In this document: positions 865 through 34,100 of the stretch, in pieces | How positions within the stretch are numbered: the first letter of the stretch is position 1 | Layout: each line of letters begins with the position of its first letter | DNA from: a virus | Virus record (IMG/VR): IMGVR_UViG_3300022930_000001 | Coordinates: 32,001-96,000 of that record | Reading direction: 5' to 3' (one strand) | Length of the DNA stretch: 64,000 nucleotides | Notes under the pieces: generated by a model | Told to the model about the DNA's origin: nothing | The model's database searches: none | The model's input: only the letters and a program-made list of their open reading frames with translations | Position numbers and translations under genes: made by a program

Positions 865-1299
865 ATGGAACAACTATTAGAGCCACAAGTTGCTCAAAAA
901 CTTGAAATAACAGAAGAAAATAAAGTAGTTTTACTTTGTGTATACGGTACATTACTCAAAGATTATGGCAACTGGGCATATTTTCTTAAAAATAAAAGTA
1001 AATTTTTAGGTACATTCCAAACTAAACCTGAATTTACAATGTATAATACTGGTGGATTTCCAATAGTATCCCCTTCTGGAAATACATCTATTGAATGTGA
1101 TGTTTTTGAAATAAAACAAAATAGTGTTTTGCAGCGCATTCATCAATTAGAAGGCTTCAGAGGTATTATTGGTAGTCCAGATAATTGGTATGATGTAATG
1201 CCTATAGAAACACCTTATGGACAAGCTTATATGTATATACAAGAAGGAGAACATCAACTTCCTATTGTAAAATCAGGTAAATGGCGTTCTAAAAATTAA
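865..1299 (+). CDS. gamma-glutamylcyclotransferase (GGACT/AIG2-like)
   Basis: VYGTL motif, GGFP, HQLEG with the catalytic Glu, terminal SGKW. Typical GGACT signature. Confidence 0.88.
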   Translation: MEQLLEPQVAQKLEITEENKVVLLCVYGTLLKDYGNWAYFLKNKSKFLGTFQTKPEFTMYNTGGFPIVSPSGNTSIECDVFEIKQNSVLQRIHQLEGFRGIIGSPDNWYDVMPIETPYGQAYMYIQEGEHQLPIVKSGKWRSKN

Positions 1300-1343
1300 T
1301 CTTTTATTCTTAATTAAACTTTAACTTAAAAAAAATATTTAAA

Positions 1344-2159
1344 ATGAGTATACAATCATTATTGATGGCAGAAGTAACTTTAGGATCAGATGTTGAATTT
1401 TTTCTAAGGCATAAACATAGTGGAGAAATTGTATCTGCTGAAGGACTTATTCCGGGTACAAAACACGAACCTGCACATTTTGATCCAAATAATAAGTATT
1501 ATGCAACTTCTTTGGATAATGTTATGGCTGAAGGTAATATCCCACCTACGGCTAATGCTTTAGATTTTTATAAATCTATTGAAAAGCTTCGTAAACATAT
1601 TGATTCTTTAGTAATTAATCAAAATCTTGAAACAATAGCTATTCCAAGTGCAAGACTTGATTTCAAATGGCTTCAAACAGAAAACGCAAAGCTTTTTGGA
1701 TGTGAACCATCGTTTAATGCATGGTCAGGAGAATGGCAACATCCTCAGGCCAAAGATGATAATGCTCGTTCTGCAGGTTTTCATATTCATTGTGGATATG
1801 ATTCCCCTTCAGAAGAAACAAATAATTTATTTGGTCGTGCTTGTGATTTATTCCTAGGTATACCATCAATAATTATGGAACCTATGAATGAACGTAAACA
1901 TGTAGGATATGGTCTTGCAGGCAATATCCGTAATAAGCCTTATGGTGTAGAATATCGTACCTTATCATCTTATTTTGCATCTTCACAGCAACTTACAGAA
2001 TGGTCATTTAGAAATACTTTGCGTGCTGTAAATTTTATAAATAACGGACATTCATCACTTATTGAAAATATGGGTGATGAAATACAACGAATTATTAATC
2101 AGGAAGATCGTAAAGCTGCAAAAGCTATTGTTAAAGAATTTAATCTTGAATTAGTATAA
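1344..2159 (+). CDS. phiEco32-like COOH-NH2 ligase type 2 (glutamine-synthetase fold)
   Basis: TLGSDVEFF, GTKHEP, DNVMAE, FGCEPSFNAW, RSAGFHIHCG, YGLAGNIRNKPYGVEYRTLS are the hallmark motifs of this family. Confidence 0.9.
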   Translation: MSIQSLLMAEVTLGSDVEFFLRHKHSGEIVSAEGLIPGTKHEPAHFDPNNKYYATSLDNVMAEGNIPPTANALDFYKSIEKLRKHIDSLVINQNLETIAIPSARLDFKWLQTENAKLFGCEPSFNAWSGEWQHPQAKDDNARSAGFHIHCGYDSPSEETNNLFGRACDLFLGIPSIIMEPMNERKHVGYGLAGNIRNKPYGVEYRTLSSYFASSQQLTEWSFRNTLRAVNFINNGHSSLIENMGDEIQRIINQEDRKAAKAIVKEFNLELV

Positions 2160-2860
2160 TGAGGTACTTTTGTAATTTTAAAACTATTAAAGCAGATACT
2201 GAAAGTCAGGATCATTTTGGAGCAGCTTGTTTTGGAGATATTTATAGAAATGGAAAAAACTATAAAAAAGTAGTTTTTTATGTTTGTAAAGACTATAAAG
2301 ATTATTCTCACAATAAAATGAATTTTTCAGAAAAACAAGTTTTAGAATATGTAGAAGGATTGAAATCTCTAGGATTTACTTTAGATGTAAATACACAAGA
2401 TTCATTTACTTATATTAGTAAAAAATATGAAGCATATTCTTTTACAATTCCTTTGAAGGAAAATTATTTTCTAGGTGTTTTGTTTCTATTAAACTGTTTA
2501 CGTTATTTACATGAAGACAATTATCCTACTATTTTAGAAAAATTATTTAAATGGTGGAATGATGAAGATCGGTCAAATTTTTATAATAAACTAATTATTG
2601 CACATTATCAACAAGAATATTCTTGTGGACATTGTTTTAAACCAAGTTATTCTAAATTATTAGATTTGGTTGAAGATGCGCAAGTACTGCAAATGATTGA
2701 ACAAAATAAAGATTCTAATTCTGTTAGTGGTAGCTTACGTCAAATAAAAAAACTACCTTCCGGACTAGACCTTGGTGAACTTAAATCATTGATTAATCAA
2801 AATAATTCATTTAAAGAAATTTTAGAAAAATATACAAAATTATGCGAAAAATATTTGTAA
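2159..2860 (+). CDS. hypothetical protein in the ligase cluster
   Basis: 233 aa, TAATG coupling to the upstream ligase. AACFG, LRYLHE and CGHC motifs, no family recognised. Confidence 0.7.
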   Translation: MRYFCNFKTIKADTESQDHFGAACFGDIYRNGKNYKKVVFYVCKDYKDYSHNKMNFSEKQVLEYVEGLKSLGFTLDVNTQDSFTYISKKYEAYSFTIPLKENYFLGVLFLLNCLRYLHEDNYPTILEKLFKWWNDEDRSNFYNKLIIAHYQQEYSCGHCFKPSYSKLLDLVEDAQVLQMIEQNKDSNSVSGSLRQIKKLPSGLDLGELKSLINQNNSFKEILEKYTKLCEKYL

Positions 2861-3456
2861 TAGGTGGAAATACGGTTTATGCTAATTGGATGCAAGGTAC
2901 ACTTGTAGAAAAACTAGAAGAAGCTGATTTAGTAGTATTAACTGGTGGTGAAGATGTTTCACCTAAATATTATCAGCAACCTGCGCACAAAACAACTTAT
3001 AATAGTCCTGCACGAGATCTTTATGAAATAAAAGAAGCTCGTAAAGCTATTGAACTTGGAATTCCAATAATAGGAATTTGTCGAGGAAGTCAACTATCAT
3101 GTGTTCTTGCGGGTGGAGATTTGGTTCAAGATCAACCTAATCCTAGATACATTCATCCAATTAAAACTTATGATGATAAAGAATTTGAAATAACAAGTAC
3201 TCATCATCAGGCACAACTTCCATTTTGTCTACCAAAAGAAGAATACAAAATTCTTGCATGGACAGAAAAAATGTTAGGTTATCATAAAGATGGATGGGAT
3301 AACGAAATTAATCCTGAAGTAGAAGTAGAAATATGTTTTTATCCTAAGATAAAAGCCTTAGCTATTCAAGGACATCCTGAATCAATGATAGAAAACGAAC
3401 CTGTTATAAAATGGTTACAAACACTGTTAACAAAACATTTGAATAATGAACTCTAA
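2842..3456 (+). CDS. class I glutamine amidotransferase / gamma-glutamyl hydrolase (peptidase C26-like)
   Basis: LTGGEDVSP..Y, RD..E, GICRGSQ (nucleophile Cys), STHHQ, QGHPE (His-Glu). The triad is intact. Confidence 0.9.
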   Translation: MRKIFVIGGNTVYANWMQGTLVEKLEEADLVVLTGGEDVSPKYYQQPAHKTTYNSPARDLYEIKEARKAIELGIPIIGICRGSQLSCVLAGGDLVQDQPNPRYIHPIKTYDDKEFEITSTHHQAQLPFCLPKEEYKILAWTEKMLGYHKDGWDNEINPEVEVEICFYPKIKALAIQGHPESMIENEPVIKWLQTLLTKHLNNEL

Positions 3457-3943
3457 AAAAATAATAAGTCACTTAAAAGAAAAAGAAAAATTATTTGATC
3501 AGGAAGGTTTTCTACATTTTAAAGAAAAAATTAGATATCGTAAATTAAATGTAGTACAATTTATTAATAATTTAATTACTAAATGGTATCCAAAATATTG
3601 TACTTATACAGCAATTGATAACTTAGATACAGGATGTGCAAAACATCATTCTGTTGAAAGCATCTATAAAACTGTAAAATATTATTATCCAAATATTACT
3701 TTAATAGAAGTAATTGGAATATTATATTATTATGGATATCAGAAAGATTTTTATGCACTTCCTTGTAATACAATTAACAAGATTACTTTTTTTAAAGCAG
3801 GTTCTCGTGGATATGGTAATTCTTTTTTTTCAGATTGGACATTATCATCATGCAGAAAATTAGAAGTTAAACTTGAAGTATTACGTAAAAATCATTTTAC
3901 AAAAGAAAAATGTGAAGAATATTTTAATTTATTAAACAACTAA
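3446..3943 (+). CDS. hypothetical protein, paralogous to the N-terminal domain of the downstream ATP-grasp ORF
   Basis: Shares LHFKE, PKY.TY, LDT, KYYYP.I.L.E and C..I.KITFF with residues 1-170 of 3946..5367. Confidence 0.75.
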   Translation: MNSKKIISHLKEKEKLFDQEGFLHFKEKIRYRKLNVVQFINNLITKWYPKYCTYTAIDNLDTGCAKHHSVESIYKTVKYYYPNITLIEVIGILYYYGYQKDFYALPCNTINKITFFKAGSRGYGNSFFSDWTLSSCRKLEVKLEVLRKNHFTKEKCEEYFNLLNN

Positions 3944-3945
3944 AA

Positions 3946-5367
3946 ATGACAAAAGAAAAAGTTTTAAATATCCTAGTAGCAAAAGAGCAGACCTTTATTG
4001 AGAAAGGACTTTTGCACTTTAAAGAAGTATTAAAAGAAGAAATTAACATTAAAATTGAAGAATTTATTGTAAAACTTTTAAAAGAACATATTCCTAAGTA
4101 TTCAACATATTGTATTAATAATGGTGTGTTAGATACTGTTGCTAATAAAAATAGATCATTTGAAGATATTTTTAGAATAACAAAGTATTATTATCCTGAA
4201 ATAAAATTGAATGAACTATATGCAATTTTAATGCTGATGGTTCATAATACTGAAGAAACAGGAATTAGAACTCTTTGTTGTGGATCAATTCATAAAATAA
4301 CATTTTTTCATAAAACAATTAGAGATTATAGTAATTATCCTGATGATGGTTCTACTGATATCTCATTAGAAATAACCAATAAAAATTTAAATAATATATT
4401 TACTAAAAATTATTGTCAAGAATTAATTAATAATTTAAACAAACCAAAAGAAATAATTAAAAAGAAAGTTATGGAAAATAATATAATTCCTATTTTAGGT
4501 TTGGCTGTCAGGGGAGGTTTTCGTCCTCGTATTTGTTCTCGTCATCCTACACATAATATTCTTCGTACAGAACTTCCAAAAATGAAGTTTAGATCTGTAT
4601 TTCGTCTTGGTTCTACTACTGAAATTGAAGATGTTATAGATAATGGAGGTGTAAGAGTTGAAATTAATTCTATTGAATCTGTTAAAAATTCTGCATCTAA
4701 AAGGCTTATGAAAGAATGCTTTACTGATGCAGGTGTTAAAACTGCAGATTGGTTTATTGTAGACGCACAAGGAAATTTTATTCAAAAACTTGGTGAAAAT
4801 TCCAAAAAAATATCTAAAAAAGAATTACCTTTTCCACTTATTATTAAAAGCCTTCATGGTTCTCGTGGTCGTGGTAATACACTTGTAAAAGATCTTGCGG
4901 CTTTAGATATATTTTTACAGGGTAAGGATATGAAGAATTATATTATCGAAAAATTCTATTCTTATTCTCGTGAATATCGTATTCATGTTACAAGTGAAGG
5001 TTACTTTTATACTTGTCGTAAAATGCTTAAAAAAGATACTCCTGAAGATAAGCGTTTCCAAAGGCATGATGATAATTGTGTATGGATTGTTGAAGATAAT
5101 CCTTCTTTTGAAAAACCTGTAAATTGGGATGCATTAGTCGCAGATTGTATAAAAGCACTTGAAAGCCTTGGTGGAGATATAATGGCCTTTGATGTTAAAA
5201 TGCAATCTGTAAAAGATGCTAAAGGTAATCTTCGTAAAGATCCAAAATGGATCATACTTGAATCTTGTAGTGCTCCTAGTTTTGGAGAAATTACTGCAAA
5301 AAAGTATATTGAGCAAATACCTAAAGTTGCTACTCGTATTGCTTTAGAAGTAGGAATACTTAAATAA
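3946..5367 (+). CDS. ATP-grasp peptide ligase (RimK/YheCD-like) with an N-terminal duplicated domain
   Basis: C-terminal ~300 aa: VFRLGST, IN..ESVKNSASK, FPLIIKSLHGSRGRG, IEKF, EYRIHV, GGDIMAFDV, ILESCSAPS. Possible internal ATG at 4471. Confidence 0.85.
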   Translation: MTKEKVLNILVAKEQTFIEKGLLHFKEVLKEEINIKIEEFIVKLLKEHIPKYSTYCINNGVLDTVANKNRSFEDIFRITKYYYPEIKLNELYAILMLMVHNTEETGIRTLCCGSIHKITFFHKTIRDYSNYPDDGSTDISLEITNKNLNNIFTKNYCQELINNLNKPKEIIKKKVMENNIIPILGLAVRGGFRPRICSRHPTHNILRTELPKMKFRSVFRLGSTTEIEDVIDNGGVRVEINSIESVKNSASKRLMKECFTDAGVKTADWFIVDAQGNFIQKLGENSKKISKKELPFPLIIKSLHGSRGRGNTLVKDLAALDIFLQGKDMKNYIIEKFYSYSREYRIHVTSEGYFYTCRKMLKKDTPEDKRFQRHDDNCVWIVEDNPSFEKPVNWDALVADCIKALESLGGDIMAFDVKMQSVKDAKGNLRKDPKWIILESCSAPSFGEITAKKYIEQIPKVATRIALEVGILK

Positions 5368-5465
5368 AGATTTAAAGAGACTGTTTAATGTGCATAGAAG
5401 CTTTTGCGAAGCGTAGAACATTACTTTAACTATTTTAAAAACAAAACAAATAAAACTAATTTAAA

Positions 5466-7640
5466 ATGATAACATCAATAGCATATTATTTGCTCATACT
5501 AATTGCCTTAAGAGTATTTTTTAAGCCAGACAGCTCTATACTATGCTGTGGAATTGCAGGAGTTTCTGTTGTAAAAGGTTTAACTCCTGAACAAGAACAA
5601 AAAGTAACCATGAATATGAAATTGCTAGCACTAGCAAATCAAAGTCGTGGTGAAGATGGTTGCGGTGTATATATGAATGGTGAAATATTCAAAGGATATG
5701 AAGATAGTACTAATAAAATACATACTAAAAAAATGGTAGATTTTCTTGGTCAACCAGAATGGATATTACCCAAACTAGATTCTACGTTAGGTACTGCAAT
5801 GTTTATGCATGCACGTAAAACAACTTCTGGTGCATCTGTGCGGGCAAATACCCATCCATTTTATATAAAATCAGTACATAATGAAAAAGATGATATGATT
5901 CTTTGTCATAATGGTACTATTAAAAACATTTGGGATATGTGCCGTGAATATGAAATGAAGAATTCTGATTATAATGTAGATTCTTTTGCTCTTGGTGCAA
6001 TGATTGATAAAGTTGGAGCTAAAAAAGCTTTGACAAAATATGATGGCGCTGCAGCATTACTTTGGGTAAAACCTGCAGAACCTGATATACTGTATGTATT
6101 TCATGGTGCTTCTCGTACTGTAAAAGATGGTGTAATTTATTATGAACGTCCATTATGTTTCCTTAAAACAAAAGAAGGAATTTATTTTTCTTCAATGGAA
6201 GAATCATTGTATGCTATTCGTGATAGTGTTGATCAGCAAGTATTTGATGTTGATGCCAATGAAGTAATACGAGTTCGTAATGGTAAATTTGTACACCCAA
6301 GGATAGCCATTGATCGTGCAGATTCTTGTCTTTATAAAGCACCTGTAAGACCTGCATATAATTGGAATGAAAAACCTACAGAAATTGGATTTAAACCTAC
6401 AAATCAGACTGGTTCAAGTATTATTGCGACTGAGGTTCTAAGTGCTCCTAAAGTATCATTAGTATGGTCAGAAACAATGCCTGTTAAACCAACAGAAGGT
6501 ACTAGAATACTTTTTGCAAAAAATCGCTATTGGTTCAATGGATCATTACTTGTACATGGTGAACAATATTTAAACTGTAAAGGAATTGTAGATGATAAAA
6601 CACATCATGATACTAAAGCGTATTATTTTTGGGCAGGTATTTTATTGAAATCTGAAGCTGATTATAATATTCTATTAAATGTGAGTAAAGATGCTTCTTC
6701 ATGGATAAGAAGTCAATCAGTTAATTTTGCATATACAATCTCTAAATTTGCAGCACATCCAGTCACAAATAGTGAAACAGAATTTATTACAGTTAATAAT
6801 ATAGGTTCTGAACCTTACTGGAGATTTGCATTTTATGAAGATGGTCATCGTTGTAAAAAGAATTTTAGTGCTAAATTTAGCTCTAGAACATATGTGATAA
6901 ACAAACAAGCATTTCTTGAAAAAATAGTAAGTTCTGATAAATTAGATAAAGAATTCTTCATTGAAAATCTTAAAACAGATTCTACAAATAATGATGTATT
7001 ATCGGTGTTTGATTGTTCTTATAAAGAAATAAATGAACTTGTTAGAACAATAACAGTCGTTGAAAAATTAGTAGTAAAGGAATTTTTAGCAGAACAATTA
7101 AAAGCTGATTCTCCTGTAGATCCTGTACCTGCTGAAATAGAGGATGCTTACATGACACTTCTACGAAATGTAATTAAAAATGAAACTTGCATTCGAGTAG
7201 AATTAAATGATTTAACAACAACTTTGGAAACTTATGTAGAAATGATTGAACTTGAATATAAAAATCGAGGAAATTCATACAGTAAGGAAGAAGAAGAATT
7301 TGATAAATTCATTGATGGAAATTTTATCATTGATACTGTAGAGCCAACACTTCCGTCTACAAGTATCGAAGAAGAGGAAGCTTTTACAACTTATACTGAA
7401 GAACAAATAGAACTTGAAATGACAAAAGAAAAACTTGAAATGGTTATTGATCAACTAGCAATGCTAGATGAAACAGCTGAAGAACTAAAAACAATAAATA
7501 ATGATTTGGCTCAAGAATCGGCAAGTGTTTTATATAAATCTTTAGATTCTATAAAACATAATTTGTCAGAAATTCTTGTAAAAAATGATTGTACAAATTT
7601 ATCAAATGAATTAAACCGTAAAGTAAAAACAATTATATAA
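5466..7640 (+). CDS. class II (Ntn) glutamine amidotransferase domain protein with a long C-terminal extension
   Basis: CGIAG at residues 28-32, SRGEDGCG, HARKTT.G, NTHPF, HNGTI, VDS, GAAAL, ERPL, FSS. The C-terminus is acidic and helical. Confidence 0.88.
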   Translation: MITSIAYYLLILIALRVFFKPDSSILCCGIAGVSVVKGLTPEQEQKVTMNMKLLALANQSRGEDGCGVYMNGEIFKGYEDSTNKIHTKKMVDFLGQPEWILPKLDSTLGTAMFMHARKTTSGASVRANTHPFYIKSVHNEKDDMILCHNGTIKNIWDMCREYEMKNSDYNVDSFALGAMIDKVGAKKALTKYDGAAALLWVKPAEPDILYVFHGASRTVKDGVIYYERPLCFLKTKEGIYFSSMEESLYAIRDSVDQQVFDVDANEVIRVRNGKFVHPRIAIDRADSCLYKAPVRPAYNWNEKPTEIGFKPTNQTGSSIIATEVLSAPKVSLVWSETMPVKPTEGTRILFAKNRYWFNGSLLVHGEQYLNCKGIVDDKTHHDTKAYYFWAGILLKSEADYNILLNVSKDASSWIRSQSVNFAYTISKFAAHPVTNSETEFITVNNIGSEPYWRFAFYEDGHRCKKNFSAKFSSRTYVINKQAFLEKIVSSDKLDKEFFIENLKTDSTNNDVLSVFDCSYKEINELVRTITVVEKLVVKEFLAEQLKADSPVDPVPAEIEDAYMTLLRNVIKNETCIRVELNDLTTTLETYVEMIELEYKNRGNSYSKEEEEFDKFIDGNFIIDTVEPTLPSTSIEEEEAFTTYTEEQIELEMTKEKLEMVIDQLAMLDETAEELKTINNDLAQESASVLYKSLDSIKHNLSEILVKNDCTNLSNELNRKVKTII

Positions 7641-10069
7641 TGACACTTTATATAGATAATCCAAATTTAAATCTACCGATTAAAAAAACAGTAGACGGTA
7701 CAAAAGAATACAGAAACAATTGTAAATATATTGGTGAAAAGTATTATCGTATTAATGATCAAGTGTATGAAGTAGAAGGTACTTGGTATCGTAAAGAAAC
7801 AGGTAAAATTGAACTTGATCATGAATTACAAAAGTGGCAATTAAAAAATGGTAATCTTATAAAGGGTGCTGTCGGGATTAATCCCGACGGTACTCCTTTA
7901 ATAGGACATTTTTCAAGAAATCCTATTAAAAATGCAATTTGTCATTTTAGTAATTATGGAAGACTTTCTATCCTTAATGTGGATTTAATTCAAGATAATA
8001 GTTTTGTTGAAAATATGGGTAGTGGTGAGTTTGTGCAAACTATCGGTATGGGTGCAGGAAGTATTGCAAAATTGAATCGCATTCATAATGAAGTTGACCA
8101 TACTCGTAAAGGTTATAATATTGAAGATAACGCTGTAGAATTTGCAGAGAAAAAACAAGTTTATGCAGAATACAATACTAAAATTAGTAAAGATGCAAAG
8201 CTTTTTGGTAAACTATTAGGTGATACTACTTTTGGATGTGAATTAGAAACATCTGAAGGTATGCTTCCTGATTATCTTCAGTATCGTCATGGAACAATTA
8301 TATGTCGTGATGGATCAATACATGGTGGAGCAGAATATGTTACAATTCCTATGAGTGGCCCTAAAGGCATTCAAACATTACATAATTTATGTAATGATCT
8401 TAGTAAGCGTTGTAATATTGATGTTAATTGTGCATTGCATATTCATCTAGGTAATTTACCTCAAGATAGAGCATATTTAGTTTCATTGTATAATTTATTC
8501 TATAAAATACAGGATGAATTGTTTAAGATGTTTCCTTATTATAAAACAGATCCTAGAGGAGTAAAAAAGAAGAATTATTGCCAGAAATCAAAAACTATGG
8601 CGATGGCTCCTCTTAAAGATACTTCTAAAGCAGGATTTAAGGAATATGTTGATGATTACTATTATAAGCTTTTCATGTTTCTTTCTGATGGTATTCCTCC
8701 AGATGCTCATAATAATAGGAATAATAATCAACATCCTGTAAGGAACAAATGGGATCGAGTTAATCGCTTGACAAAATAGGCGCATAGTTTAGTAATAAAC
8801 TAATGAAAATTGGGTGAATTCAAAGGAAATCTTAAGTAAAATTTATTTGGTTATATGGGATTTATTATATATCTTTGCAAAAAGAATCCCACTTATGGCA
8901 ACATATGAATTACAAACAAAAGTTAGAAAAAGTGACAATAGAAAATCTTTTAAAATAGATGATCGAGTTAATGAATTTACAATTATTGATGATCAATTTT
9001 ATAAAACAAATGCTTCCAATCATTTACACTTAAAATGTAAATGTCAATGCGGAAATACTTGTTATGAAAGAGTTGATCATCTACGTGATGGTAAAAGAAA
9101 AAGTTGTCCTAAATGTACACAAGATGTTAATAATAAAAAAATTAGACCTTTTGGAGAAATGACTTCATACTCATTTATTACTTTAAAAAGTCGAGCAGTT
9201 GAACGAAATTTAGAATTTGATTTAGATATGGAATATCTTCATAATCTTTTTATTGAACAAAATCGTAAATGTGCTCTATCTAAAATGGATATAAGTATTA
9301 AAAAATTAGCATCAGGTCGTATTACTGCGTCATTAGATAGAATTGATTCCAAAAAAGGTTATATTAAAGGTAATGTACAATGGCTACATACAAGAGTTAA
9401 TATAATGAAGAGTAATATGGAAGAAATATTATTTATTAACATATGTAATTTAGTTTGTAAAAATAATCAAGAATTAATACAAGATAATTTTGATCCAAGT
9501 CTACTGAATGAATTCTCTTTTAACGAGAAAGTAAGTAGGAAGGAGCAACGACTAGAGATTGAGGATATTCAAACCAATAACATCTCCAAGAGCGCCCGAC
9601 ATCCAGAAATGGATGATGACATAGTCTGAGCTATATAGAAATATATAGAAATTAGGATAAAGAGCCTAATGATAACAAAACTGATTACGCACTTAACATG
9701 TTAAATATGCTATTTTCAGAGCGTAAAACTATAGAGCATCGTTTACATACTCCTACATTAAATTCAACTAAAGTAATAAATTGGTTGTTTATTGTAAATG
9801 CAATATGTAAATATGCTGAGAAAAATATGCAAAAAATACTAACAACTGAAGGAAATATTTCTCTTAAAGAAGTATTTAATTATTATCGTGAAGCAAATCC
9901 TGAAAATGATAGAGCGGGCTTTGTATCAGATTTTTTATGGGCTTATTATGAAAGTCGAGTTAAATCTTTTCAAAAGGATCTTAAAAATGATGATAAAATT
10001 AGTGAATGGGAGATGAAACAAGATAAAAAATACGTATTTATGTATCAAGGAATAAGTTCTTTGGTATAA
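7640..10069 (+). CDS. putative amidoligase (Amidoligase_2-like), split gene: exon 1 7640-8768, exon 2 9684-10069, 504 aa spliced
   Basis: Exon 1 has FGCELET, DGSI, EYVT, CALHIHLG and NYC. Joining 8768 to 9684 restores in-frame ...VNR-Y-YALNMLN...KTIEHRLHTPT, the conserved RY..LN...TIE.R motif. Confidence 0.87.
8846..8877 (+). promoter_or_regulatory. Bacteroidota housekeeping-sigma promoter inside the intron, upstream of the homing endonuclease
   Basis: TTTG (8846-49), 20 nt, TATCTTTG (8870-77), ending 17 nt before ATG 8895. Confidence 0.75.
8895..9629 (+). CDS. intron-encoded HNH (bba-Me) homing endonuclease
   Basis: CKCQCG..SCPKC zinc motifs, then CALS..ASLDRIDSKKGY.KGNVQW....N.MK. Likely start is ATG 8895 after the promoter (track start 8814 is GTG inside P3). 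The stop lies just after the 3' strand of P7. Confidence 0.85.
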   Translation: MATYELQTKVRKSDNRKSFKIDDRVNEFTIIDDQFYKTNASNHLHLKCKCQCGNTCYERVDHLRDGKRKSCPKCTQDVNNKKIRPFGEMTSYSFITLKSRAVERNLEFDLDMEYLHNLFIEQNRKCALSKMDISIKKLASGRITASLDRIDSKKGYIKGNVQWLHTRVNIMKSNMEEILFINICNLVCKNNQELIQDNFDPSLLNEFSFNEKVSRKEQRLEIEDIQTNNISKSARHPEMDDDIV

Positions 10070-10084
10070 AATTAAAATAAATAA

Positions 10085-10158
10085 GAACTGGTAACTTAGA
10101 TGCTTTAAAGAGATTGCCTACAAGCGATTTGACATAGGTTGGACTCCTATCCAGTTCT
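10085..10158 (+). pseudogene. degenerate tRNA-like cloverleaf (possibly derived from tRNA-Val UAC)
   Basis: gaactgg-ta-actt-agatgcttta-aaga-g-attgc-ctacaa-gcgat-ttgac-atagg-ttggact-cctat-ccagttc-t. Arm spacing is canonical, but the anticodon loop is 6 nt, the T-loop is TTGGACT, the D-loop lacks GG and no CCA is encoded. Confidence 0.55.
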
Positions 10159-10166
10159 TATTTATT

Positions 10167-10198
10167 TTTGTTATTATTAACTATTTAGAGTATCTTTG
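10167..10198 (+). promoter_or_regulatory. Bacteroidota-type promoter
   Basis: TTTG (10167-70), 20 nt, TATCTTTG (10191-98). ATG at 10203 implies a leaderless or near-leaderless transcript. Confidence 0.75.
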
Positions 10199-10202
10199 TG
10201 CC

Positions 10203-10640
10203 ATGAATACATGGACTTACAAAGGAGAAATAATAGATAATATAGATAAAGTGCCTGAAGGTGCTATTGGTTTTATATATTGCCTTACGAATATTAATAC
10301 CGGAAAGCAGTATATCGGTAAAAAATATCTTTATAGTGAACGAAAGAAAAATCTTACTAAAAAAGAAATTTCAGAACTTGCTAGTAAAAGATTAAAACAT
10401 TGGAAAACAGTTAAATCAGAAAGTGATTGGCTTACTTATAATTCTTCCTCTGAAGAAATCAAGAAAGAAATAAAAGAAGGTCAATTATTTCAGAAAGAAA
10501 TATTATATTGGACATTTAATAAAATAAGTACAACATATTTAGAAATACGTACCCAGATGGAATTACGAGTTTTAGAATCAAATATGTATTACAACAATAA
10601 TATAAATTCTAGCTGGTTTAGAGATAATATAGGAATATAA
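10203..10640 (+). CDS. free-standing GIY-YIG family endonuclease
   Basis: GFIYCLTN..TGKQYIGKK, W.TY.SS, catalytic-type E (YLE), YYN.NI. Confidence 0.8.
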   Translation: MNTWTYKGEIIDNIDKVPEGAIGFIYCLTNINTGKQYIGKKYLYSERKKNLTKKEISELASKRLKHWKTVKSESDWLTYNSSSEEIKKEIKEGQLFQKEILYWTFNKISTTYLEIRTQMELRVLESNMYYNNNINSSWFRDNIGI

Positions 10641-31173: not shown

Positions 31174-34100
31174 TATCTACCTGCTTTTGAATTAATAACT
31201 ATTCCCATTTCTTGTGCTGCTTCAGGTTCAAATATTGCAATATAATTAAGCATTTCTTTAGTTACAGGAAAAGTTTTCATTATATATTTTACTGGATGTG
31301 TAGAGTCAACTAAATCCTGATCACCAATAGTATATCCAAATATTTCTGTTGCTAAATTTGTAAATATTTTAGTTATATCTGAAAGTACTCCCAGACCCGG
31401 AAATATTCCTCCAGATAATATATGCTGAAGAGACATCGGATTATAATAAAATGACATTTCCTGAGTTATATTATCCATTGTACGTAAATAATAACCATAT
31501 GCTGCCTTAGTTGTTTTATCTTCATCATCTTCTGGTGCAAAATATTTCGCAGCTAAAAACATCGAAATAAGACCTAGAACAAGTAATGTATCCTTTACTT
31601 GTGATCTAAGATTTTGACGAACTAAATCATAAAATTCAGCTTCAGTCATTTCTAACTGTTTATTATTTTTTTCAAAATAATCTTTTTTCTTTTGTTCATA
31701 TAGTTTTTGCAATCCATTAATACCATCTTTAGTAGCATAAACAGTATCATATATTTTCTTTATATTGGGTAATAAATTCCAAGAAAAATATCGAATTGCC
31801 ATACGCATTTTACCCCATTCATAAGAATCAGTTCCTGCTATATAACTTAATGGTTGTGCTCTTTGATAAATAAGATTAGGAACCCAGTTTTTAAACATCA
31901 TAAAAGATCTACCTAGAATAGTAAAACGTATTTGACTTTCATCGTTAGGTGATATATTGCCCGCTGCACGTTTACCTATTTGTTGAACTAATGAACGATA
32001 TTTATGAATTGATTCTTCTGTTGCGTCACCTATTTTAAATTTACCATCTACTACATTCGCTTTTTTAGCTACTCCAAATTGTTCTTTAAGTTCTTTTACT
32101 TTATTATCAAAATCTTTTTCTAATTTTCTGCTATCTGCTTCAGATAGATTATATCTATTTTGATATTCTTTAGTAGAAGCATAGTACGCTCTTGCATTTA
32201 CTAGTTTTTTATCTATAACTATTGCATTATCCATCATAGCTAAGAAGTTAGCATATTGAACAACACTATCTGCATTACGCATTATAGACATTATCAGATC
32301 TGAAGCCGAATGTTTAGTAAGATTAGAAAGTGACATATTATTCATCATCCTTTGTAATGATTCATCTCCAAGAGGTAAAAATGTTTTCATCATTGCAAGA
32401 TGTACATTTTCCTTATCTCCTATAAATTTATGAGTTGCAAATTTCCATTCTGCAGCAAAAAACTCTGATTTATTATAATATTTACCTTCTGTGACAAATG
32501 CTTGAAAATTACCACCCATAAACTGTGCAATAGAAGAAGCTACATTTAAACCAAGTGTTTTCATAGTAAACATTCTATTACCTGCATCGATTACTTTTAC
32601 TAAAGATAAATTTCGAGTTTTAATTTCATCTGATACTTTGGGTAAAGTTGTACCAAATCTATTATTCATAGTTTCAGCAATACTATTCCATTTATTGGCA
32701 ATACCCTCTCCAACTTTTCCTAATAATACATCTGATGATTCTGAAGTAATATATTTTTGACCATAAAGATTATTTTTTATATAATTCTTTAAGAATTTAG
32801 AATTTACTTCATTAGATTCATTTGGAAATTGCAAAGCATCTTTAATAAGATTACCATATTGATTTATTTGTAAAGATTGTTTATTTTTTTCTACAAAATA
32901 AAGTGCATTTGCAAGTCCTTCTACATTTTTCTTATTTTCATATTCTACTACTTGTTTAGTATAAATTGCAAGATTTTTAAATATATCGTCTGATACATTA
33001 GAATAATCTTGATAAGAATTACCATCTTTATCTATTTTTGCTTGAGATATATCTGAAGTAAAATATTTAGGAATAGTATCTTCTATTTCACCTGTTAATG
33101 GATTAAAATTACCATATCCAACAGATTCATCATCTATTGATAAACTCGAAATTAAACTTTCTATAGGATTAAAACTTCCACCAAACACAAATTTTTCAGC
33201 AATAATTTTTCTAATAAAAGGTAAAAAGTTTTTATACTTTTGTGCTGTTAAATATTCTGATTCTTTTGCTTTAGTATTTATTTCTAATGCATAATTATAT
33301 AAAGCAAGAACTGATTCATTTTTTTGAAGTTCTTGATATTCTTTACTTAACCATTTATCCGTAGGAAATTGACGAAGACCTATTAAGTTAGTATAAGGAA
33401 CATTTGAATTAAGATTTGTGATATATTCTAAATCAAGTTTCGCTTTTGTTTTAGCGTTAGCTTGTTCTTCCTTATCTCCTAAATATGTAGATTCATCAAT
33501 TTGTTTAATTTTATTTGCTTTATAATCGTTAATCCATTTTTCAAATTTTACAACATCAATATTTGCCTTAATCCACTTATAATCTTTAGCTTCAATTTTA
33601 TTTTTTAATTCTTTATAAAATTCAGAACTATATTTATCTATAAGTTGATTGACACCTTTACCACTTACTTGTTTTTCAATAAGTTTTTTATAATCAGAAA
33701 TTTTTAATCTTTTAGATTTATAAGATTCTTTTAAATCTTTTTCTATTTGAATTAAACGTTCAACATAATCTTGTGTTTGTAATTCTGTTTTATTTCGGAA
33801 TTCTTCTGCGATTAACCAATATGTTTGTACTGCTTTAGTAGGTGCTGAAGATAATGTTCTAAAATTTCTATCTACAGTATTTACAGATTTTTCTGCTTCT
33901 AATAAATCTCTAATATTTCTTTTTTCAGATATATATTTAGAAGTAAATTTATTAAATATTAATTTAACATTTTTACTGGCACTTCTTGCTTCGGCAGCCA
34001 ATTGTTTGATATCTTTAAGATCATCTTTATGTTTGTCTAAATTTTCTTTAAAAAAATCTTCAAAATAAAGATCAATATCTTTGTATATTTCTAAAGCTTC

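Follow-up and report, generated by a model that had tools for sequence, protein, structure and literature searches.

A phiEco32-type amidoligase gene cluster with lineage-specific accessory genes in the replication module of an environmental crAss-like phage

Identification of the cluster

Analysis of a 64,000-bp stretch of the IMG/VR virus genome IMGVR_UViG_3300022930_000001 (positions 32,001 to 96,000; hereafter the window) revealed that the genes at window positions 865-10069 form the operon of a phiEco32-type phage amidoligase system lying in the replication module. The operon encodes members of six enzyme families, namely a COOH-NH2 ligase, an ATP-grasp ligase, an Amidoligase_2 protein, an Ntn (class II) glutamine amidotransferase, a Peptidase C26-type protein and a GGCT-like gamma-glutamyl cyclotransferase. 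The cluster is of a known, computationally described kind; this copy carries lineage-specific accessories and its composition is not unique. As to its role, we put at about one half the probability that it encodes a multistep cytoplasmic pathway of amide/gamma-glutamyl biosynthesis, and not a reversible tag.

The source genome is a single contig of 118,695 bp with 28.8% G+C and no N. It is that of a phage, with genes for a ribonucleotide reductase, a UvsX/RecA-like recombinase and a PD-(D/E)XK exonuclease, and a family A DNA polymerase gene upstream. Ten open reading frames (ORFs) on the + strand make up one co-directional run at 865-10069, in which neighbours overlap or are 2-98 nt apart. A first-pass annotation, made by a model from the letters and an ORF list, had described a tightly coupled run of these enzyme genes, which was borne out by the ORF map and by Pfam, PHROG and NCBIfam matches to all six enzyme families. 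The features are as follows (window coordinates, strand, assignment).

865-1299, +, GGCT/GGACT-like gamma-glutamyl cyclotransferase, 144 aa (PF06094, 2.4e-13; phrog_2520, 4.7e-19)
1344-2159, +, phiEco32-type COOH-NH2 ligase type 2, 271 aa (PF14395, 6.2e-12; phrog_3815, 9e-57)
2159-2860, +, 233-aa protein of a cluster-linked family (homologues in loci L006 and L007)
2842-3456, +, putative class I amidotransferase/Peptidase C26-type gamma-glutamyl hydrolase, 204 aa (PF07722, 2.2e-20)
3446-3943, +, predicted free-standing winged-helix domain protein, 165 aa (paralogy to the N-terminus encoded by the next gene; AlphaFold2 model)
3946-5367, +, 473-aa fusion protein, predicted winged-helix domain at residues ~1-175 and ATP-grasp ligase at ~195-465 (phrog_2599, 2.3e-19 over residues 222-462)
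5466-7640, +, Ntn (class II) glutamine amidotransferase, 724 aa (GATase_6 PF13522, 1e-9, 38.9 bits)
7640-8768, +, Amidoligase_2 exon 1, from ORF 7640-8779, its start overlapping the Ntn stop (PF12224, 24.4 bits; phrog_2443, 4.5e-20)
8769-9683, +, group I intron, 915 nt (Rfam RF00028, 43.2 bits, E 2.5e-9)
8814-9629, +, HNH homing-endonuclease ORF within the intron (phrog_3322, 2.1e-24; phrog_1035, 5e-16)
9684-10069, +, Amidoligase_2 exon 2, containing ORF 9698-10069, with a T-I-E-H-R motif (phrog_2443 positions 328-365; tblastn match to Leptolyngbya phage Lbo-JY46, 37.7%, 1.5e-21)
10074-10168, +, long hairpin, its interior tRNA-like and its tail T-rich (Rfam tRNA match at 10085-10158, 34.2 bits)

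Conservation in related phages

We fetched 23 IMG/VR loci with an alignment of Ntn homologues; near-duplicates among them are L016 with L019-L023, L009 with L010, and L017 with L018. In these loci, 1) COOH-NH2 ligase and amidoligase were each present in 21 of 23, one of the missing amidoligases falling at the end of a locus, 2) ATP-grasp and GGCT were each present in 20 of 23, one GGCT gene lying 10 kb off, 3) C26 was present in 8 of 23, and 4) tblastn detected the 233-aa family in 2 of 23 and the winged-helix domain in 3 of 23. The kept order was primase, GGCT, (accessory), COOH-NH2 ligase, (233-aa family), (C26), ATP-grasp, Ntn, amidoligase, (endonuclease), PD-(D/E)XK exonuclease, where parentheses mark optional members. 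The co-conservation implied by the first-pass annotation was therefore found, with partners in 20-21 of the 23 loci and in conserved order, and the partners are likewise associated in phiEco32, PaP3, CVT22, cr108_1 and Lbo-JY46. Megablast of the whole 9.2-kb run against phages gave no match, and an IMG/VR scan with the COOH-NH2 ligase as a single protein gave no relatives.

Among 50,697 phage records, the COOH-NH2 ligase was matched in 316, headed by phages of Pseudomonas (121) and Escherichia (94), then Vibrio, Aeromonas, Proteus and others, with the best matches in Lbo-JY46 (47%) and cr108_1 (38%). Homologues of the C26 protein were present in 67 phage records, in several of which they lay within 2-3 kb of the ligase gene.

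The archetype of the PF14395 family ("Phage phiEco32-like COOH.NH2 ligase-type 2") is the gp77-gp88 cluster of Escherichia phage phiEco32, which shares with the window GGCT (phrog_2520), ATP-grasp (phrog_2599), Ntn (phrog_4736; 676 aa versus 724 aa), COOH-NH2 ligase (phrog_3815) and amidoligase. Four of its proteins fall in the same PHROGs as those of the window, and its genes form one co-directional block beside primase/helicase. It differs in that no C26 homologue was detected (gp85 belongs to phrog_4877 and gave a probability of 0.07% against the C26 profile in hhalign), in gene order, and in having no winged-helix fusion, 233-aa family member or intron; BLAST matched only two of the window proteins in phiEco32.

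The nearest cultured relative, Lbo-JY46 (GenBank:PP438436.1), contains all six families in nearly the same order, with tblastn identities of 31-47%: C26, GGCT, COOH-NH2 ligase, a second C26-like gene, ATP-grasp, Ntn (729 aa) and amidoligase (495 aa). In contrast to the window, its amidoligase gene is uninterrupted, the extension of its ATP-grasp protein is C-terminal and not N-terminal, extra C26 copies are present, and its host is a cyanobacterium; homologues of the 233-aa and 165-aa proteins were not found in it. Directly upstream of its cluster (L001:4736-8945) are genes annotated as PncB (nicotinate phosphoribosyltransferase) and PrsA (phosphoribosyl pyrophosphate synthetase), whereas Pfam detected neither among ten upstream ORFs scanned in the window's genome.

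In cr108_1 (Crassvirales, Steigviridae), gp028-gp034 include ATP-grasp, C26, COOH-NH2 ligase, Ntn and amidoligase, and are located between primase and UDG/PD-(D/E)XK exonuclease/ribonucleotide reductase, the same place relative to primase, exonuclease and reductase as in the window. GGCT was not found there by tblastn, the Ntn protein is only 492 aa long, and proteins of 335 and 300 aa replace the accessories of the window. Pseudomonas phage PaP3 (Bruynoghevirus, orf42-orf50) has a four-family core of COOH-NH2 ligase, amidoligase, Ntn and ATP-grasp plus GGCT, and Citrobacter phage CVT22 (Zobellviridae, gp50-gp65) this core plus C26 with no annotated GGCT, both next to primase/helicase; neither of these small podophage genomes (45-48 kb) is annotated with both GGCT and C26, and hhalign did not link the C26 profile to PaP3 orf47.

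The window terminase matched best that of Lbo-JY46 (37.9%), followed by those of the Cellulophaga phages phi17:2 and phi4:1 (~30%) and of Crassvirales (25-28%). Because of these matches and the synteny of the replication module with cr108_1, the phage can be called crAss-like in a broad sense; the first-pass designation of a crAss-like Bacteroidota phage stands to that extent, whereas the narrower sense is unsupported and a Bacteroidota host is a guess.

These comparisons agree with the first-pass statement that ligase/amidotransferase/GGCT clusters of the phiEco32 type were known computationally, as the families and PHROGs are shared. That annotation had also taken this version to be special in joining ligases with gamma-glutamyl-removing enzymes and to be a candidate undescribed system. 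Neither view could be kept: phiEco32 and PaP3 combine GGCT, three ligases and Ntn, Lbo-JY46 has all six families and C26 recurs in other phages, so the combination is not unique to the window, and the cluster is already known from many phages. The extra uncharacterized subunits that it mentioned do exist, as accessories specific to the lineage (the winged-helix domain and the 233-aa family). What is new here is the identity of the winged-helix domain, the linkage of the 233-aa family to the cluster, the Asp in GGCT described below, and an Ntn protein with no recognizable synthase domain.

No determined product of a phiEco32-type cluster was found in the literature searched, which did not extend to subscription journals. 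Genome papers (for example PMC10580990) list the cluster genes and refer to Iyer et al. 2009 for the suggestion that they act on the cell wall or on a metabolite; a directed evolution study reports missense mutations in a phage amidoligase and the adjacent amidotransferase, with no function assigned (PMC11450229). The cluster is widespread and its product thus represents a long-standing gap in phage biology. The present locus adds constraints: a large environmental crAss-like lineage keeps all six enzymes of the set, the Ntn protein appears to need a separate partner, the C26 protein is hydrolase-like, and one lineage has fused a winged-helix domain to ATP-grasp. The hosts of phiEco32 and PaP3/LUZ24 are tractable, and the question of function will be far easier to address there than in the present phage, which is uncultured.

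Ligases, C26 protein and GGCT

The COOH-NH2 ligase matched PF14395 with 45.7 bits (cut-off 25), and the exon 1 product of the amidoligase matched PF12224 at 3.1e-5, its score exceeding the cut-off of 22; the PHROG of the ATP-grasp protein, phrog_2599, is also that of phiEco32 gp80. Counting columns at least 90% conserved among homologues from the fetched loci, the COOH-NH2 ligase retains 27 of 28 (17 homologues), the ATP-grasp protein 17 of 18 and the C26 protein 18 of 18. Phmmer and profile searches against solved structures gave nothing for the ATP-grasp protein, the amidoligase profile or the COOH-NH2 ligase. The first-pass annotation had counted three ligase folds; COOH-NH2_lig and Amidoligase_2 are both, we assume, glutamine-synthetase-like, and the three families probably represent two folds.

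Cys80, His178 and Glu180 are present in the C26 protein, for which the best solved relatives were 3fij, 7d4r and PuuD (6vtv, E 8.9e-4), with the GICRG nucleophile elbow and HPE aligned. Because these closest solved relatives (Lin1909, an unnamed Pseudomonas-type amidotransferase and PuuD) are C26/PuuD-type hydrolases and not synthase-coupled subunits, the protein looks like a gamma-glutamyl hydrolase.

GGCT keeps the YGTL motif; in the alignment with YtfP (1xhs), it has Asp (CDVF) opposite the Glu of the GEV motif, which we take to be catalytic. Of 16 aligned sequences, 12 have Glu at this position and L017 has His, while L006 and L008 share the Asp of the window. The catalytic motifs, called apparently intact in the first-pass annotation, can thus be regarded as such for nearly all family-conserved residues of the other enzymes but not for this position of GGCT.

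Ntn amidotransferase

The Ntn protein consists of a 27-aa helical leader, a glutaminase domain (residues 28-290), a beta-rich domain (~347-490) and a helical acidic C-terminus, with C28, R61, N149-G150 and D172 invariant. Its AlphaFold model (mean predicted local distance difference test score, pLDDT, 71) has a disordered linker beyond residue 290, followed by the beta-rich domain and long helices. Its residues 28-289 can be superposed on PurF (Z 23.4), GlmS (Z 22.7) and AsnB (Z 19.4), beginning at the first residue of each, and Cys28 aligns with residue 1/2 of PurF and GlmS (Foldseek E 2e-10). Phmmer and profile searches against solved structures gave nothing for this protein. Since Cys28 superposes on the first residue of PurF/GlmS, the model identifies it as the nucleophile, and the 27-aa leader is predicted to require removal.

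It was also noticed that the leader (window 5466-5546) is hydrophobic, helical in the model and precedes the nucleophile Cys. A hydrophobic leader is common to 5 of 9 metagenomic Ntn homologues aligned, while 3 of 9 start with Met-Cys.

In whole-model searches no synthase domain was matched past residue 290; the middle domain was never searched alone. Lacking a recognizable synthase domain, the Ntn protein probably works with a separate partner, most likely the amidoligase because its gene directly follows (1-nt overlap at 7640); the two genes are adjacent in most fetched loci, too. Complex prediction with the Ntn glutaminase domain and amidoligase of L007 scored 0.08 against a mark of 0.32, which speaks neither for nor against binding.

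Proposed pathway and alternative functions

The pathway to which we give even odds would build an amide-linked, glutamate/glutamine-derived product in the cytoplasm. COOH-NH2 ligase, Amidoligase_2 and the ATP-grasp enzyme would act as ATP-dependent carboxylate-amine ligases, each forming one amide bond; the leader-free Ntn glutaminase would deliver ammonia, or a gamma-glutamyl-carried amine, to a separate ligase, most likely the amidoligase; and C26 and GGCT would remove or recycle gamma-glutamyl groups as deprotection or salvage and not as signal erasure. As acceptor, a small amine/peptide or a cell-wall precursor seems somewhat likelier than a protein or nucleic acid.

Such enzyme pairings are typical of biosynthetic routes with gamma-glutamyl as a transient carrier. 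In PuuA/PuuD and BtrJ/BtrG, as we understand these routes, an ATP-dependent glutamate-amine ligase is paired with an enzyme for later removal of the gamma-glutamyl group, either a C26-type hydrolase or a GGCT-type cyclotransferase, and we know of no phage-type COOH-NH2 ligase or Amidoligase_2 in PuuA/PuuD or the butirosin route. The likeness of the window to bacterial gamma-glutamyl-amine routes is weak and concerns single enzymes only, PuuD being among the solved relatives of its C26 protein.

Several points weigh against this pathway. Its logic is drawn by analogy from other systems (PuuA/PuuD, butirosin BtrJ/BtrG and glutamyl-hydrazine routes). The GGCT step may be weak or altered, because Asp replaces the predicted catalytic Glu; the ATP-grasp protein matched PF02222 only at 4.3e-5 and 23.7 bits, under the cut-off of 27; and the middle region of the Ntn protein could hide an acceptor domain. 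A nucleic-acid or protein target would be equally compatible with the position in the replication module and with the winged-helix fusion.

Three other functions were considered. The first is envelope modification, in which peptidoglycan or other precursors are amidated or receive amino acids, so that superinfection is blocked or lysis is tuned. This is the very idea, suggested for phiEco32, for which an OM43 phage paper cites Iyer et al. 2009 (PMC10580990), and a bacterial amidotransferase-ligase pair, MurT-GatD, reportedly amidates peptidoglycan (PMC5871853). The named carriers are mostly phages of Gram-negative hosts, which fits a universal target such as peptidoglycan precursors. However, Pfam and PHROG scans detected no Mur-ligase, transpeptidase or membrane protein in the cluster, and all cluster enzymes look cytoplasmic; we regard this function as unlikely, if the likeliest of the three.

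The reversible gamma-glutamyl/amide tagging put forward in the first-pass annotation, taken here as tagging of host or phage proteins, would have the ligases as writers of Glu or amide marks and GGCT and C26 as erasers, and could serve host takeover, superinfection exclusion or anti-defence; it is in our judgement improbable. The ATP-grasp enzyme does belong to a PHROG named for ribosomal protein S6 modification and gave a weak NCBIfam RimK match (1.3e-5, far under its cut-off), its fused winged-helix domain is of a fold that is often protein-binding, and Burroughs et al. propose host-protein modification for other phage ATP-grasp ligases (PMC4431377). However, the RimK assignment is a family label only, no candidate target or conserved small substrate protein was found beside the cluster, and the free winged-helix proteins have no conserved acidic C-terminus. 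Co-transcription of writers and "erasers" from one operon is unlike what a switch needs, and Asp occupies the catalytic position of GGCT; no specific support for this system was found.

Modification of nucleotides or DNA, by which an amino-acid-derived group is attached and the winged-helix domain brings the ligase to nucleic acid, deserves little credence: the cluster does always lie in the replication/nucleotide-metabolism module (adjoining primase, helicase, exonuclease and ribonucleotide reductase in the window and the crAss-like loci; beside primase/helicase in phiEco32, PaP3 and CVT22), and the fused domain has a canonical DNA-binding winged-helix topology in a family of which one member bears a SWIB domain, but the fusion is absent from most relatives, the winged-helix Z-scores are middling, the neighbours scanned include no hydroxymethylase, kinase or glycosylase of known hypermodification routes, and the genomic position may reflect early/middle expression only.

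Split amidoligase gene

ORFs 7640-8779 and 9698-10069 match successive parts of one PHROG, phrog_2443, and the HNH ORF lies in between. The group I intron core was located at 9415-9648, its 43.2 bits falling under the Rfam gathering score of 50. The intron is inserted in a conserved R-Y-Y/F-x-x-N motif, with the 5' exon ending at U8768 and the intron at G9683. Predicted splicing joins U8768 to A9684 and yields R-Y-Y-A-L-N in a 504-aa product that aligns gap-free with 12 homologues. In the uninterrupted amidoligase of Lbo-JY46, exactly 5 codons lie between the two pieces; an alternative splice pair, U8777/G9656, would leave an insert of 17 residues, against 5 in homologues, and was rejected. 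The amidoligase of L007 is likewise uninterrupted.

Similar interruptions were observed in other loci. The amidoligase ORF of L006 (L006:12142-13889) breaks at the same residue as in the window, with no endonuclease ORF between the pieces, and in L008 (L008:12361-14562) and L018 (L018:9620-11500) an HNH ORF comes right after the first amidoligase piece. These interruptions indicate that the intron recurs in relatives. In L008, the COOH-NH2 ligase ORF is also short, at 211 aa, and a LAGLIDADG endonuclease ORF comes after it (L008:4784-6412; PF14528, 1.6e-11); thus, an intron or intein may reside in a second cluster gene of that phage.

Winged-helix domain

The 165-aa ORF and the first ~165 aa of the 473-aa ORF (3946-4470) are 36% identical (E 3e-25), which confirms the duplicated domain reported by the first-pass annotation. 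For the 165-aa protein there was no match in Pfam, PHROG or NCBIfam, a word-based homologue search returned only the protein itself, and tblastn against phages returned nothing. ESM Atlas provided no usable lead for it or for the 233-aa protein (pLDDT 0.44 and 0.43, respectively; feature scores at most 0.84). A profile built from the two copies matched 477 proteins at E<=1e-3 among 1.84 billion representatives, 32 of them at <=1e-10, the two best being the window's own copies. The closest metagenomic homologues, P0003 and P0005, are on contigs of 117,922 bp and 101,304 bp, respectively. Most members are 130-190 aa long, and others bear the domain C-terminally in proteins of ~260-350 aa; ten members were scanned, none with a Pfam family for this domain and one (467 aa) repeating the winged-helix and ATP-grasp fusion. 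A fusion of the same length (474 aa) is present in L009/L010. Another member, the metagenomic P0069 (376 aa), has an N-terminal SWIB/MDM2 domain (1.2e-24).

The AlphaFold2 model of the 165-aa protein from a 60-row alignment reached a pLDDT of 90 and has the order alpha1-beta1-alpha2-alpha3-beta2-beta3. Foldseek matches were weak (best E 0.025), to winged-helix domains of Fur/PerR-type regulators, and VIA-align returned mostly winged-helix domains (Z 5.5-7.5 over residues 32-120). From this moderate structural match, we interpret the protein as a winged-helix module whose family is large and unnamed. In the fused copy the Arg-Ser-x-x-Asp signature of the family is retained, whereas the free copy deviates at two near-invariant positions (His versus Arg in 59/60, Ser versus Asp in 57/60).

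The RiPP recognition element (RRE, PqqD-like) has a three-stranded sheet followed by three helices and binds a leader peptide; the element order in the 165-aa model differs from this, and no RRE entry was among the structure matches listed for the model. No conserved small ORF was found beside the cluster, nor was a conserved precursor peptide seen upstream of it. A LysW-like carrier role of the free protein was rejected, the conserved acidic C-terminus being absent. The domain fused to ATP-grasp may target or regulate that step in this lineage. A bolder suggestion, which we hold to be a long shot, is that it recruits the ATP-grasp enzyme to nucleic acid or a partner protein, that the cluster modifies DNA, RNA or a DNA-bound protein, and that the free paralogue is a competitor or regulator; if true, the phiEco32-type cluster would be a nucleic-acid- or chromatin-directed modification system and not a metabolite pathway.

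233-aa protein

Searches with the 233-aa protein gave nothing in Pfam, PHROG, NCBIfam or Atlas, and only chance-level matches to solved structures. Homologues occupy the same position in L006 (two copies) and L007, and hhalign related the family to one located between GGCT and the ligase in L007, L008, L011 and L013-L015 (probability 82.8%, E 9.3e-6). Because of these same-position homologues and the hhalign-linked second family, the protein is, judging by homology, a recurrent cluster accessory in this lineage. In hhalign the 233-aa family showed no link to phiEco32 gp85, and its related family, A5, showed none to phiEco32 gp87 or to accessory proteins of L016 or cr108_1 (335 aa).

Regions outside the cluster

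The hairpin at 10074-10168 may be the terminator of the operon or a site of processing. At the same place, 3' of the amidoligase gene, 7 of 10 relatives examined have a plain long hairpin that is perfect or nearly so, and a T run follows it in 6. ARAGORN predicted no tRNA in it, though the Rfam tRNA score exceeds the gathering score of 29. A scan for sigma-70 promoters and terminators was uninformative (72 sites versus 69 expected).

Giant ORFs of 2073, 3962, 875, 1369 and 1625 aa were observed on the - strand at window 31173-61006, of which three were scanned (2073, 875 and 1369 aa), none of them matching a PHROG at E<=1e-5. Directly 3' of the cluster, an ORF at window 10203-10640 encodes a SegE-like GIY-YIG endonuclease (PF19835, 6.2e-26), a second mobile endonuclease besides the HNH enzyme of the intron; L006, L007 and L009 carry homologous ORFs at this position.

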